A stretch of DNA of 64,000 bases from an uncultured Armatimonadetes bacterium. Its GTDB lineage: Bacteria; Armatimonadota; Hebobacteria; Hebobacterales; Hebobacteraceae. Positions 58,366 to 63,930 of the stretch are shown in pieces. The stretch spans positions 1,824,001 to 1,888,000 of the forward strand of contig OY970296.1 in NCBI GenBank assembly GCA_963716175.1, written 5' to 3'. Below the pieces are notes generated by a model, which saw only the letters and a list, made by a program, of their open reading frames with translations, did no database searches and was not told the origin of the DNA. The position numbers and the translations under genes are program-made. Within the stretch, counting starts at the first letter, position 1. The number at the start of each line of letters is the position of its first letter.

Positions 58366-60000
58366 CTACTTCGCGGGCACGAGTACCGGGTTGCCCAGGT
58401 AGAGGGTGATGTCCTCCGTCGGCGCGTTGAACCACAGCCGCCAGTGGCGGACCTGGCCCACGTTGGTGACGATGCTCGCTTCGTCGAGGGGAAGGCGCAG
58501 GAGGACCGGCGTACCCGGCGGCACCGGAATGTAGAGTCGCTCCCACGCGTAGCCGTCCTCGCCAGCCAGATCGGCCGCCAGGGGCACCGTATGGTCCATC
58601 GGGTTATAGAGCGGCTGCTCCAGGTAGCGGTACTTCGACCAGTCTGTGGTCGCCAGCAGCTTGCCATCGATCATCACCCACGGCCACTCATCGCTGTTCT
58701 TGTCGGCCCGATCGAACCGGGAGACGTGCATCTCGATCGCATAGCGCTGTCCATCGATCTCGTGCGGTTGCCGCACGATGCGACCGGCGGGATGTTCCTT
58801 GCTCAGCGCCTCTAGGAGTGCCGCGTTCGCGTAATCGAACACTACCAGGCCCCGGGAGGGCCTTGCCTTGGCCCCCAGGAGGACGCGGTTCCACTCGGTC
58901 CTCCGGAAGGTGGGCCGACCGGGTTTGAGGGCGCCCTCGCGCATCTTCCGGTAGACCTCGCCCAGTGCCGCGCACGCCGCGGGAGAAGCGTCGAAGCCTT
59001 GGGGCACTCCGCTCTCGCCCTCCCAGTGGTAGATGAAGGGCATCAAGCCGGCCGCCCCCTGCTCCAGGTAAGCAAGGCACTCCTCCCGCACCTGCTCGGG
59101 CGTGGTCATGACATCCCACGTGCCCGTCTGCTCCCGGAACATCTGCGGCATGCCGATCAACCCAATGCCGGGCTGCTGCGCGTTCGCCAGCTGCATGATG
59201 TAGGTCAACTGCCGGCGGGTGTTCTGATCCAGCGTCCCGTGATGGTAGGGGTAGAGATACACGCCCAGGGCGTCGCAGATGCCGGGCGAGAAGTTCTCCA
59301 TGGCCGATGCTCCCCCGACGCCCATCACGATCACGTGGTGGTACGGGCTGCCGTCTGCCTTCCGGTCATTGGCCCGGATCACACGCGCCATCTCCTTCAG
59401 AGAGTCGCCCTCGAACGGACGGGCGTCGTCTACGAGCCAGAAGCCCCACAGGTTCGGCGAGTCCTTCACGGCCAGAATGTCCTGCTTCAGGCCTTCGGAG
59501 TTGCACAGGAGCAACCCCGCGCTATGCGGCGCCGGCTTGGTGCCGTCCGCACCCCGCGTGCATCCGGTGAAGGCGTCGGCGGTCCGACCCGTGTAGGTGA
59601 TATGCTCCCCCTCGATCACCAGCGTGCCGGAGGGCGGGAACGACGCCCCCTCTCCCCTGGTGTCGGCGGCCACCGCGATCGTGTTTTCCTGCGGCGCGAG
59701 CTCCTTGGCCAGGCGCAAGCCCACAAAGCGGCTGGAGAGATTGTACATCACCTTCATCTGGTGGTCCGCGATCGCCTTGCCCATAGGGCTGGCCGGATCC
59801 AGCTGTTGCCGGCCGCGATCAGCGCTGTAAGTGTAGATGAGCGTCGCCCCGAGCTTGGCGAGCTCCGTGATTTGCTCGGGCGTCTCAACCCCGAAGGCCC
59901 CCAGCGGCGGACGCCCGTACACGCTCAGGTCCACGGCCCTGGCCTGTGCTCCGTATCCACAGAGCCACACAAGGCTCAAGCAGACGATGGCTTTCGGCAT
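58366..60000 (-). CDS. Secreted hypothetical GH-like TIM-barrel protein
   Basis: Signal peptide after SD; KDSPNLWGFWLVDD, YLYP, GAAGL. Confidence 0.6.
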   Translation of the reverse strand: MPKAIVCLSLVWLCGYGAQARAVDLSVYGRPPLGAFGVETPEQITELAKLGATLIYTYSADRGRQQLDPASPMGKAIADHQMKVMYNLSSRFVGLRLAKELAPQENTIAVAADTRGEGASFPPSGTLVIEGEHITYTGRTADAFTGCTRGADGTKPAPHSAGLLLCNSEGLKQDILAVKDSPNLWGFWLVDDARPFEGDSLKEMARVIRANDRKADGSPYHHVIVMGVGGASAMENFSPGICDALGVYLYPYHHGTLDQNTRRQLTYIMQLANAQQPGIGLIGMPQMFREQTGTWDVMTTPEQVREECLAYLEQGAAGLMPFIYHWEGESGVPQGFDASPAACAALGEVYRKMREGALKPGRPTFRRTEWNRVLLGAKARPSRGLVVFDYANAALLEALSKEHPAGRIVRQPHEIDGQRYAIEMHVSRFDRADKNSDEWPWVMIDGKLLATTDWSKYRYLEQPLYNPMDHTVPLAADLAGEDGYAWERLYIPVPPGTPVLLRLPLDEASIVTNVGQVRHWRLWFNAPTEDITLYLGNPVLVPAK

Positions 60001-60169
60001 GGTTCCGGCCTTCCTTGGCTCGCGGCCGCGGGCCTTCCAGTGCCAAGCAGCACTGGAGGTTCCCGTCCCGCGCCCGATATCCCTCTGCGCCCGCGGTCGC
60101 TCGGCAGCTTCCTCCTGCGGCGAGCCGAAAGCGCTCGCCACGAGCATCGCGGCCTAGTCTGTTAGTCGG

Positions 60170-60579
60170 CGCTATAGAAGCGGCGTCAAGTCCTCGTCAG
60201 TGGCCTTCCTTCCTCACGTCACAGGCGTTCTCCGCGAGCCACAAGGGCGGAGTGCCCCTTTGCGTGACGGAGCCCGCCGTGGCTCGCCCAGGATTTGTGC
60301 GCGGCTGGTTTCTCGCGAGTTCGCTATCGGCGCTCTAGGGCGCACACTGTCGTCGCGGATGGGGAGCCTCCCAGTTCGCTATAGAAGCGGCGTCAAGTCC
60401 TCATCAGTGCCTTCTTTCCTCACGTCACATGCGTTCTCCGCGAGCCGCAAGGGCGGAACCCCCGCTGTGGTGGAGCCCGCCGTGGCTCGCCCAGGATCTG
60501 TGCGCGGCTGGTTTCTCGCGAGTTCGCTATCGGCGCTCCGGGGCGCATGCTATCGTCGCGGATGGGGAGCCTCCCAGTT
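60170..60579. repeat. Two tandem diverged units (60170..60376, 207 bp; 60377..60579, 203 bp)
   Basis: Manual alignment: long identical blocks, scattered substitutions and one variable loop. Confidence 0.95.
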
Positions 60580-60656
60580 CATCGAGAGCCGTCTGCGCGG
60601 CTAGCCGATTGAGGGGGAGTGCTCCCGCCAAGGGTGCGAGCTCCAGCCGCTCGCGA
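60170..60656 (-). ncRNA. Putative bridge RNA/seekRNA region downstream of transposase
   Basis: Long non-coding right end with stems and internal loops; contains ATAGCGAACT identical to the reconstructed donor junction. Confidence 0.6.
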
Positions 60657-61699
60657 TCAAACCGTGACCTGCACGTGCTCCTCCGGTGCCAGTTCCCGCC
60701 ACGGCTGCCCGGTGCGCAAGAGATGGTAGATCAGATGCGTGGCCTTTCGCGCCACGGCCATCTTGGCGCCATTGCGATGCCCCCGCAGCTGGATCCGCCA
60801 GTAGCGCTGATGCAGGCGACTGCCCTTGCCCTGGCAGGCCATCCGGTTCGCCAGCAGGCCCAGTGCGTACCGCAGCCAGGGATTGCCCCGGTGTCCCAAG
60901 GGCCCATAGCGGCAGTGCTCTCCGCTCTGGAAGACGCGTGGTGCCAGGCCGGCATAGGAGATCAATGCCGCCGAACTGGGGAAGCGTCGAATGTCGCCGA
61001 TCTCGGCTCGCACCGCCAACGCGGTGAAGGGCCCTACCGAGGGCATCGTGCGCAACTGCGCGCAAACCGCGTCACGCTCGGCCTCTTCCTTGATCGCCAC
61101 CTCCAGCTCCGCCTCGATCTCCTGCGCCTTCTCCAGCATCTCTCGCCACAGCTCCAGCACCCGCGCCGAATGTCCCGGCAACTGCGCGGCGTCCAAGTGG
61201 TCCTTCCCCCGCTTCGAGAGCAGGCTCTTGGACTCGACCTCCCCCCAGCACCGCAACAACGATCCGATCTCGTTCACCAGCTTCGTCACCCACCGGGTCG
61301 CTCGCACCTTGCCCCGCACCAATACCCGCAGATCCTGGGTATGCTCGTCCGGTACATAGATCCCCTTGATCTCTTCCCGATACAGCTTCTGCGCCATGCG
61401 CAGGGCATCTCATCTCGCCGATCCGTCTTCGCACTACGATCCCGCTTGCGATCCCACAACTGCGCCGGGTCCGCGATCACCAGGCGGGCGAAGTAGGGCT
61501 TCAGCACGCGATACATGGACCAGGCATTGGTTCCCGTCTCCATCACCCCGTGCAAAGGGCCGGGCAGCTCCCCGAGCACGACGGCCATCACCTCCGGCTC
61601 ATTGCTGATGCGCGCACGCTCCACGATCTCGCCGGTCTCGGGATCGAAGCCCCGGAGCGTGGTCCACTGGCTGTGCACATCCAATCCCACATAGAGCAT
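60657..61699 (-). pseudogene. IS110-family transposase frameshifted by 5-bp duplication at 61406..61415
   Basis: YVGLDVH, METG, KTDRRD; then LRTMPSVGP, EIGDIRRF, YAGLAP..QSG, AVARK. Confidence 0.9.
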
Positions 61700-61930
61700 C
61701 TCTGGCTTGTCCTCCTCTGAGGCTATCGGTCAGGCCTCTGATTCGGCACCGCGAGGGCAAGCCGCTTCTATGATAGTTCGTGCAATGATGACCCGCTTAG
61801 GGAGGTGATCGCCGTCGACCACTGACCCACCCTCGAACAGTCGAAACCTGGTCTCCTGGTCGTGCAGGGACACCATCCTAGCGTTCTGACCATTGCTCGG
61901 GGTGGGTCAACCCACGGCGCCGATGGCAGG

Positions 61931-63586
61931 TCAGTTCGCGGTGCCGGCCCACAAAACTGTTCCCTCACGTATCGGCAGCAGGACGTGGGAGGCGTGGGCC
62001 GGGTCCATGTAGATGGTATTGTGGGCGACCCGGGGCGAGACGAAGCGGGGGTAGCCTATCCCGGAGTTCGCGTTGGCGGCATAGCCGGGGTAGCTGCTCG
62101 AGGTCACGTGAAGCCGTATCCGATGCCCGGTGTTGAAGACGATACTGGTTGACCAGAGGTCAAGGTCCAGGAGGTAAGGGCGGCCCGGCTCTACTGACGC
62201 CTCCTTCGACAGCGACTCACGCAACCGGAGCCTGGTGCCTCCCTCACAGATGTTGATGGAGCGTCCGTCCGGGTAGACATCGCACAGCCTGGCGATGAAG
62301 TCGGTGTCCGGCGCGTCGGTGGAGGCCCAGAGTTTCACTCGCACCCGTCCTGTCACCTCCACAGGGCGGTCCAGGGGGTCAGTGGTGAACACGAGCACAT
62401 CCGCGCGAGATTCGATGGGACGCTGGTCCCGCGGTCCGGCCGGCAGGTCATACTGGTAGCCACCAGTAGTCGGCACGGGACGGTGCGGGTCGTACGGGTA
62501 GGCGAGGGCTGTACCTTTCCTATCGCGTTTGGGTTCCAGCGTTCGATCACAATGCAGGTAGAGCCGAGTGGCCGACCTCGGGAAGGGAGGCCAGCTCTCT
62601 GCAGTGCGCCAGCGATTGCCGGGGGCTTTCGGGTCGGTCGCGTCACCCATGACATAGTAGTTCACAGGCGCAAGATCGGCGTCGGAGGTCAAGCCCTTCA
62701 GGCGGGCGCCGAACCAGGCCCAAGCATCCGCGGCACTGGCGGGTGGCTCGTCGGCGTGCGGGAAGGGCCACTTGCTAGCGAAGTCGGGGTATGACACATG
62801 GTCAGTCCCAGGCCCCATCACCAACCTCTGGGCTCGGCGTGCATGCGGCCCCCCATGTTCCTGCATGCCTAAGAAGCCATCAATCGTGCCCTGGGAGAAG
62901 ACATCATACCACCCTCCTGAGTGCAGCGCTGGCACATCCATTTGGCCATAGCGCAGCGCGGCACTGCGTTGCTGCCAGTAACTGTCGTACGTGGGATGGG
63001 ACATCCAGATCTCCAGCGCGCCCGGGTCGAAGATTTCCTCCTGCAGCCATCCCTCGACAAGCGCCTTGCGAAACAGACCGTTCGTGTAGGCGAATGTGTA
63101 GAGGTCGGGGGTCGCGACACCGATGTTTAGCGCGGCCAACCTCCGGGTTCCGGTCCCTGCTGCGAGGAACTGAGCGATCCCCATGGCGGAACCAGCATGC
63201 ATGCCGATCTTGCCATTGCACCAGGGCTGCGCAGCTATCCACTCGAGCGTGTCGTAGCCGTCCTGGTGGCCCCACCAGCCGTCACCTTCGAAGGGGAGGT
63301 TCTCTCCTTCTGAGGCGAAGCGGCCGCGGGTATTCTGGACGACAAACGCATAAACGTCGGCCGCGCGGTGGCGGGCCAAGTTGCTGTAGATGTCTTTGTC
63401 GTAAGGAGTGCGCATGAGGATCACCGGAGCTGGATTGCCTTCAGCAGGCAGGTAGACGTCAGTGGCGAGCCGCACCCCGTCGCGCATGGGCACCAGGAAG
63501 GTCTGCTTGCTCTGCTCCGTGGCAACCGAGCCTAACGCCGGGGTCAGCAGGAGCACCACTATTGCGCAGGTGAGTCTGACTCTCAC
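61931..63586 (-). CDS. Secreted CocE/NonD family hydrolase
   Basis: VPMRDGVRLATDVYLP, RTPY, RGRFASEG, DGYDTLEWI, GGWYD, GHRIRL..SSSYP. Confidence 0.88.
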   Translation of the reverse strand: MRVRLTCAIVVLLLTPALGSVATEQSKQTFLVPMRDGVRLATDVYLPAEGNPAPVILMRTPYDKDIYSNLARHRAADVYAFVVQNTRGRFASEGENLPFEGDGWWGHQDGYDTLEWIAAQPWCNGKIGMHAGSAMGIAQFLAAGTGTRRLAALNIGVATPDLYTFAYTNGLFRKALVEGWLQEEIFDPGALEIWMSHPTYDSYWQQRSAALRYGQMDVPALHSGGWYDVFSQGTIDGFLGMQEHGGPHARRAQRLVMGPGTDHVSYPDFASKWPFPHADEPPASAADAWAWFGARLKGLTSDADLAPVNYYVMGDATDPKAPGNRWRTAESWPPFPRSATRLYLHCDRTLEPKRDRKGTALAYPYDPHRPVPTTGGYQYDLPAGPRDQRPIESRADVLVFTTDPLDRPVEVTGRVRVKLWASTDAPDTDFIARLCDVYPDGRSINICEGGTRLRLRESLSKEASVEPGRPYLLDLDLWSTSIVFNTGHRIRLHVTSSSYPGYAANANSGIGYPRFVSPRVAHNTIYMDPAHASHVLLPIREGTVLWAGTAN

Positions 63587-63930
63587 GCTCACTCCTCCGG
63601 AAATCGTTCGCATCGTCGTTCGTGGAGTATCCCACCGGGCAGCGACACAGTCAATGTGGCGGCCCGTGGACATGGGGGCCACTGGTGCCTGCTGTTGGGC
63701 AGCGAACCGGCATGACCCACCAGAGGCGGAATCGGCGTCGAATCGTGAGCCAGTGGAAGCGAAGGCCGGAGGACGAAGACAGCGCCTCCGGAGACCAAGG
63801 TGACCGAATCAGGAGTGGGTCAGCTTCGGGCGCCGATGGCGGGTCAGGTCCGGATGCAGACTGCGATCACCAGACAGCAGAGCGTCACGAGTGGTCCTCG
63901 CGCGGCACGGTCGCATCTGCTATAGTGGCA

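Follow-up and report, generated by a model that had tools for sequence, protein, structure and literature searches.

The last ~205 bp of an IS1111-type insertion sequence from an uncultured Armatimonadetes bacterium were found to occur twice in tandem on the minus strand (60579-60377, then 60376-60170), and the internal end point of the duplication lies at the place where the gene of the guide RNA mimics the left junction of the element. It is likely that the junction between the two units is a product of the recombinase, in which the right end (LD and core G) would have been joined to the internal G|AACT site. Recombinase joining is the best explanation because both breakpoints are crossover (strand-exchange) positions, one being the right end with the core G and the other the G of the mimic. 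That such an internal end point is the guide gene's own left-junction mimic is new as far as the literature was searched, although the kind of event is already known. The array itself is a relic and not an expanding system.

The DNA comes from assembly GCA_963716175.1, contig OY970296.1, positions 1,824,001-1,888,000 of the forward strand; this stretch of 64,000 nt is here called the window, and the genome is one contig of 4.56 Mb in a metagenome-type assembly. Judged by its sequence, the element is an IS1111-type (IS110-family) insertion sequence guided by a seekRNA/bridge RNA, it sits in a genuine target site and its transposase is now dead. It is neighboured by a gene for a 593-aa protein without a Pfam match (58366-60147) and by an S15-family X-Pro dipeptidyl-peptidase gene (61931-63682). 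The element, its two units and its flanks are placed as follows, L002 being the second copy of the element in this genome.

61778-60170, minus strand: whole insertion sequence with both units, 1609 bp when the terminal core G (60170) is counted
61778-60377, minus strand: single-unit form of the insertion sequence
61699-60657, minus strand: DEDD transposase gene, frameshifted, in ORFs 61699-61286 and 61397-60657
60579-60377, minus strand: unit 1 (inner), 203 nt, with the handshake, stem 3' strands, donor-binding loop, 3' tail hairpin and the inner right end to G 60377
60376-60170, minus strand: unit 2 (outer), 207 nt, the same module as unit 1 with its own outer right end
60391-60366, minus strand: unit junction, g ccgcttctat agcgaactgg gaggc, with the right end, G (60377) and AACT (60376-60373)
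61795-61779, minus strand: left target flank, gggtca-N9-G, in the same register as in L002 and L011
60169-60156, minus strand: right target flank, ccgactaacagact, resembling the flanks of L002 and L011

On the minus strand the left end reads G(61779)|aactatcatagaagcggc from 61778, which is a 7-nt extension (aactatc) followed by the 11-nt subterminal repeat atagaagcggc. The right end, gccgcttctat with the 3-nt extension agc and then G, is present twice, ending at 60377 and at 60170, and the outer one (60181-60170) is followed by ccgactaac. Subterminal inverted repeats of 11 nt with extensions of 7 nt on the left and 3 nt on the right agree with the definition of IS1111 elements (repeats of 11-13 bp, a left extension of 7 (or 6) bp and a right one of 3 bp; PMC11187229). 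The RNA region is also of IS1111 type, as a long non-coding region lies 3' of the transposase gene and the match to the top strand of the target is found 5' of the match to the bottom strand. The element thus resembles ISEc11, ISKpn4 and ISPa11 (Siddiquee et al. 2024, PMC11187229) in the DEDD transposase of ~345 aa, the 3' non-coding region, the 11-nt repeats and the 7/3-nt extensions, and it resembles the IS1111 seekRNAs (PMC11187229) in having the segment complementary to the top strand 5' of the one complementary to the bottom strand and in a hairpin or REP-type-like target. Unlike in ISEc11, ISKpn4 and ISPa11, the last ~205 bp are here doubled and the transposase is frameshifted, and the sections of that paper covered here mention no tandem duplication. 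When the ends are abutted as in the predicted circle, a putative promoter would be formed by TTGACG, 14 nt before the right end, and TATCAT, nucleotides 4-9 of the left end, with a spacer of 17 nt; at the unit junction the place of the -10 box reads TGGGAG, and therefore no junction promoter is formed there. In the linear element a simple scan for sigma-70-like promoters and for terminators gave 0 of either, and a scan of 59500-62500 against Rfam 15 at E <= 1 gave no match, with the provision that Rfam may hold no model of IS1111-type seekRNAs.

The transposase ORFs match Transposase_20 (PF02371, 1.2e-21) and DEDD_Tnp_IS110 (PF01548, 4.9e-4), the latter with a score below the curated cut-off and with the N-terminal ORF truncated by the frameshift. 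Both domains are carried by relatives that have an intact 345-aa transposase, up to 93% identity. The frameshift is caused by a tandem duplication of 5 bp (AGATG twice, 61415-61406, minus strand) that is also found in the second genomic copy (L002:1866-1875), and neither copy has an intact transposase, whereas relatives in the sequencing runs X4 and X6 (95-99% identity, two other studies) are without the extra 5 nt. The shared lesion either predates the copying, in which case an enzyme acting in trans would have been needed, or was spread by gene conversion.

Relatives of the element were gathered from Armatimonadota metagenomes and MAGs, and the region 3' of the transposase gene was aligned. 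A two-loop RNA is conserved in the 22 sequences, with 24 pairs in 4 helices, 94.3% of the cells paired and 13 pairs changed on both sides. None of 500 shuffles reached 94.3%, and slid partners gave 31-46%. RNAalifold alone recovers 19 of the 24 pairs, the helix at the base of the donor loop pairs less well (84.5%), and the G-U pairs are consistent with an RNA from the transposase-sense strand. The parts of this RNA are encoded as follows.

60625-60566, minus strand: target-binding loop, from RNAalifold and pair counts in the 22 relatives and from covariation of guides and flanks
60625-60615, minus strand: target loop, 5' strands of the outer and inner stems
60613-60604, minus strand: target loop 5' arm, the right-target guide, reverse complement of the right flank
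60602-60587, minus strand: target loop hairpin
60586-60580, minus strand: target loop 3' arm ctcgatG, the left-target guide with the core G, in the same sense as the left flank
60579-60576, minus strand: handshake AACT
60575-60566, minus strand: target loop, 3' strands of the stems
60560-60517, minus strand: donor-binding loop of unit 1, with the 5' arm cgatagcat
60357-60314, minus strand: donor-binding loop of unit 2, with the 5' arm cgacagtgt
60586-60576, minus strand: internal 'pseudo-left end', the DNA encoding left-target guide, core G and handshake

The guides vary together with the flanks of the elements. The 3' arm agrees with the left flank at a mean of 5/7 nt in 14 elements versus 2.07 for mismatched pairs, and the reverse complement of the 5' arm agrees with the right flank at 6.4/10 in the 14 elements versus 4.03 for mismatched pairs, where 6.4 is an underestimate as five of the 14 elements were compared without register optimisation; neither value was reached in 10,000 permutations. 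The handshake equals nucleotides 1-4 of the element's own left end in all 18 rows compared (AACT in 10, AATT in 6 and AAAT in 2). In the donor loop, the 3' arm atagcgaact consists of the last 6 nt of the right end and nucleotides 1-4 of the left end, and the 5' arm has GATA against TATC of the left end, or GGTA against TACC, a correspondence seen by eye in the alignments. Pairing of the RNA with the left junction requires that the gene contain the sequence of this junction, and every element of the clade therefore has within it a look-alike of its left junction (the LT-core-RD 'left half'). In the window, the bases that precede the inner unit are ctcgatG (60586-60580, minus strand), and nine nucleotides of the internal site, cgatGaact, are the true left junction of the second copy. 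An internal pseudo-left-end, gat-G-aact, had been pointed out in the earlier note, made from the letters alone, and it proves to be the stretch from which left-target guide, core G and handshake of the RNA are copied.

The duplicated segment ends on the right exactly at the end of the insertion sequence and on the left exactly at the boundary of left-target guide and handshake, between 60580 and 60579, a pattern that is more than chance. After the junction G at 60377 the minus strand continues with aact ggg (60376-60370). The identity over 12 nt of the unit junction with the reconstructed circle junction of right and left end, described in the earlier note, was confirmed; 8 of the 12 are right end by construction, and only aact is an extra coincidence. 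GAACT occurs four times in the single-unit element. In L001 it was counted 12 times versus 4.8 expected, a number that none of 200 shuffles attained; within the insertion sequence most copies are guide or end sequences, and an extra GAACTGG was seen at 60691-60695, at the 3' end of the transposase gene.

The two units are clearly diverged. TRF gives a period of 203 with 2.0 copies and 90% matches over 60170-60580, and in a MAFFT alignment 186 of 203 positions are identical (91.6%). Fourteen of the 21 differing columns are derived on the branch of unit 2 and 3 on that of unit 1, with 4 unresolved, and the differences lie mostly within predicted loops. The T at 60241 of unit 2 converts an A.C mismatch of a long hairpin to a pair, which lends anecdotal support to unit 2 as a once-functional lineage. 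Neither of the two target guides is contained in the unit, nor are the loop hairpin and the 5' strands of the stems; the unit starts between the G and the handshake and is thus not a complete guide cassette, and the outer unit is unable to make a complete guide RNA. The idea that the guide cassette is mobilised by its own enzyme is not supported, given that the unit is incomplete, solo units are absent from the genome, the relatives are single-unit and both copies of the transposase gene carry the frameshift.

The second genomic copy is 100% identical to the window over 1403 nt (61779-60377), frameshift included, and has unit 1 only. Since the body and unit 1 are identical in the two copies and unit 2 is 8-10% diverged, unit 2 is much older than the split of the copies or belongs to another lineage. 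A blastn search (word size 7) with both units against the 4.56-Mb genome returned just the three known units and no solo unit. The relatives in runs X4 and X6 stop at the inner right end (60377), beside a canonical target. One more distant relative, L021, a metagenome contig of 1470 nt with a transposase of 62% identity, begins with 88 nt that repeat its own positions 1215-1302 (beginning just past the stop codon and ending with the left-target guide's G), after which the left end follows; its right end adjoins a proper target. This junction of guide and left end is of the reciprocal type and lies at the position equivalent to the breakpoint in the window, and it would be the reciprocal product expected from insertion of a circle into the mimic site. 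As one short metagenome contig, L021 could be chimeric. Each of the two junction types occurs in only 1 of ~20 elements.

Multi-unit homologues were searched in several ways. With a regular expression on right ends, a unit followed in 0 of 19 foreign right ends (18 loci), two further right ends running off their contigs; TRF on 177 loci gave no other array in any 3' non-coding region; and nhmmer was also used with four home-made profiles. Of the recombinase route proposed in the earlier note, the joining of the right end to the internal site has gained support from the crossover breakpoints and from L021, but ongoing expansion has not, with two units that are 8-10% diverged. The outward PCR proposed in the same place would be uninformative here because a tandem array and a unit circle yield one and the same product. 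In the wider surveys, a search of the order (16 genomes) gave nothing beyond relatives of ~40% identity. A single-protein query against genome contigs gave 104 pattern matches with 0 confirmed, whereas an alignment query succeeded. A DNA search with the non-coding region in 401 genomes of the phylum gave matches in 6, and one genome of the same family (G011) alone was informative with two 5'-truncated relics of this type of insertion sequence. One of these (L170:560-911) holds the last ~55 nt of the transposase gene and the entire non-coding region, the other (L176:1114-1228) the last 115 nt only, and both break elsewhere than at the breakpoint of the window.

The region is contained in 20 sequencing runs, none of RNA, and four of them were inspected as contigs, which drop rare forms. 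A 223-nt Logan contig of run X1 over 60306-60528 bridges the junction with one differing letter, but X1 is possibly the source sample and the contig then gives no independent support. Run X2 has no contig across 59942-60405. The contigs of the four runs contained no circle junction, deletion product or unit-number variant, which speaks neither for nor against such forms as rare ones are dropped.

In the window, GGGTCA-N9-G of the left flank and CCGAYTRAC of the right flank belong to a single target motif. The right flank agrees with the reverse complement of the 5' arm at 7/10. In the 7 nt beside the core, the left flank agrees with the present left-target guide at 2/7, which is chance level, while other elements average 5. 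A left flank that matches at 2/7 and yet keeps the register would be explained if the site had first been entered by an older element that carried different guides. The internal site, taken as a target, agrees with the right-target guide at 4/10, also chance level. Two other readings were tried and rejected. An upstream GGGTGGGTCAGT motif is separated from the left end by 31 nt that bear a weak resemblance to an old target-loop relic, and the nearer GGGTCA-N9-G explains the flank; unit 2 as a pre-existing MITE that served as a target is at odds with the lack of solo copies and with the two flanks forming one target motif.

In the mechanism that we propose, the element would split at the G|AACT of the target-loop 3' arm into two modules, of which module A runs from the left end across the transposase gene and into the target loop as far as the left-target guide, and module B comprises the handshake AACT, the donor-binding loop, the 3' tail and the right end; the order in the window is then A-B-B. 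We infer that the complex of enzyme and RNA, active on half-matched sites, swapped strands between the right end (LD-core) and the look-alike to give right end-G-AACT. By the likeliest route, to which we assign a little under half of the total probability, an older resident copy would have received a circle of a younger lineage at its look-alike site, so that the order became A-A-B-B. The two A modules would then have been reduced to one by homologous recombination (A-B-B), leaving the diverged module B of the resident as the outer unit, and collapse of the two B modules instead would give A-A-B, as in L021. This nested insertion is favoured by the 2/7 match of the left flank, together with the greater age of the outer unit and the fact that the close relatives in X4 and X6 have one unit each. 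The crossover in the A modules would have to lie far left, as otherwise the body would not be entirely (100%) of the young type. A crossover so far left is plausible, since even L011 shares the initial 53 nt of the left end without a difference. Alternatively, the recombinase could have put a module-B circle back into the element or exchanged sister copies unequally.

The site may be set against what is known of related systems. In IS621, the LT-RD ('left half') and LD-RT ('right half') junctions are the excision substrates (Hiraizumi et al. 2026, PMC13626964). Its bridge RNA is similar to the RNA described here in having target- and donor-binding loops and handshake guides (PMC13626964), but here the RNA is encoded after the gene and has its arms in the opposite order, with a handshake of 4 nt and an invariant core of one G. 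In addition, the site used here is not a real left half as in IS621 but the gene segment that encodes the guide for the left half. In Pseudomonas putida, the choice of end boxes decides whether the circles formed by ISPpu9 hold the transposase module, the ssr9 RNA module or the two together, and ssr9 occurs as solo copies and in tandem in some strains (Pares-Guillen et al. 2025, PMC12288879). As in ISPpu9/MITEPpu9 (PMC12288879), an RNA module bounded by sequences like the ends of the insertion sequence lies 3' of an IS110-family transposase. Whereas ssr9 is a hitch-hiker in its own right, which has copies of both end boxes and is found solo, the module described here belongs to the guide RNA of the element itself; at its left boundary it has just the G and AACT in common with the left end and no subterminal repeat, and the unit has no solo copy.

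Close to our case is also a preprint of 2026 (bioRxiv 10.64898/2026.08.14.744561) that reports 468 cases of tandem non-coding units beside IS110 transposases, with boundaries that keep LD-only matches, as well as 5,813 partial circles with recurrent internal end points and half-site initiation. As in the arrays defined there, the locus has at least 2 adjacent units of at least 50 bp on the same strand beside a transposase, with the LD match kept (here the whole right end), and the identity of the units, 90% by TRF and 91.6% by alignment, is below the at least 95% of the preprint's rule. The sequences at unmatched boundaries are called 'yet to be defined' in the preprint, and its main text makes no mention of the target-binding loop, handshake guides or IS1111, whereas here the boundary is identified. 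Transient tandem repeats of cargo have further been reported in 3 of 96 colonies (10.1101/2025.10.25.684509). A literature search on self-targeting of guide genes found no description of the site; the supplements of 10.64898/2026.08.14.744561 were outside the search and could bear on the point.

Crossover breakpoints would also be left behind by a functional, expandable array in which the 205-bp unit is a self-contained guide cassette, excised as a minicircle and re-inserted by its own enzyme, and there are parallels in the module-only minicircles and tandem ssr9 of ISPpu9 (PMC12288879) and in the re-integrating partial circles reported in bioRxiv 10.64898/2026.08.14.744561. We nevertheless consider this unlikely, as the unit does not include the target loop's 5' half, no more than two units are present and they are 90-92% identical, the second copy is single-unit and none of the 19 foreign right ends has a unit, blastn finds no solo unit in the genome, the junction promoter is not rebuilt (TGGGAG at -10) and the transposase is frameshifted in both copies. 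Exact agreement of the right boundary with the end of the insertion sequence and of the left boundary with the guide/handshake limit would have to be coincidental if the duplication arose independently of the recombinase, by ordinary slippage or unequal crossing-over at a microhomology of 1 nt (the G). Tandem duplications are common, GAACT is found 4 times in the single-unit element and the breakpoints share a single G only, all of which would suit such an origin. The reciprocal junction of L021 at the equivalent site argues against it, however, and the units are far more diverged than the two copies of the insertion sequence, so that two lineages fit better than a local slip; we regard it as improbable.

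A variant without a nested intermediate is that the younger insertion sequence inserted, by chance or at a half-site G|AACT, at the left edge of a solo module-B relic. The outer unit is indeed older, 5'-truncated relics (L170, L176) exist in a related genome, and half-match initiation has been reported (bioRxiv 10.64898/2026.08.14.744561). Because the flanks share one target motif, however, the relic would have had to start exactly at the target core; moreover, this genome has no solo unit and the site would fit neither target guide (2/7 and 4/10), and the variant thus seems doubtful to us. An assembly artefact is very improbable: repeats are error-prone and the assembly is a single contig of metagenome type, but the 21 differing columns do not agree with a collapsed or expanded identical repeat, and the junction is bridged in the short contig assembly of run X1, possibly of the same sample. 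Joining of the right end to the internal site by the recombinase remains the reading that we prefer.

Recombinases of this family that are guided by RNA are under development as genome-writing tools, and the natural partial circles and tandem modules have internal end points that are unexplained. This locus offers a testable rule for one such end point, namely that the guide gene is a decoy of the site it is guided to. Tentatively, the rule may be extended to IS1111/IS110 elements generally: the DNA of guide and handshake could be an unavoidable mimic of the left junction and an intrinsic hot spot of self-recombination, dividing the element into two exchangeable modules (transposase with target guides, and donor loop with right end). 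This would explain recurrent internal end points and let lineages swap donor modules, and A-B-B and A-A-B would both be collapsed nested self-insertions. If general, the rule predicts self-recombination sites in engineered constructs that carry the RNA gene in cis, accounts for a class of rearranged IS110/IS1111 loci and gives a route for reassortment of target- and donor-recognition modules between lineages, and with it for modular evolution of bridge RNAs. Should it not hold generally, this locus would be just another dead insertion sequence with a rearrangement.

Several repeats of other kinds were seen in the surveyed loci. Directly 3' of the right end of an IS110-family element (27% identity), the flanking DNA of L147 holds a 209-bp tandem repeat (L147:3748-4151, 1.9 copies, 99% matches), and ~16 nt at its unit junction resemble the left flank of the element, as if halves of the target bound the repeated unit. 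A 78-bp tandem repeat (L031:1-224, 2.9 copies, 97% matches) lies in the left flank of a relative of the insertion sequence. Pairs of full insertion sequences, 346 bp and ~70 bp apart, are found in repeated target sequence (L091:2015-5028 and L037:1344-2944), which is consistent with the reported lack of target immunity in the family. In record 17 of run X6 (window 60375-60405), the right end is joined to an unrelated, non-canonical flank and may represent an off-target insertion in another population.
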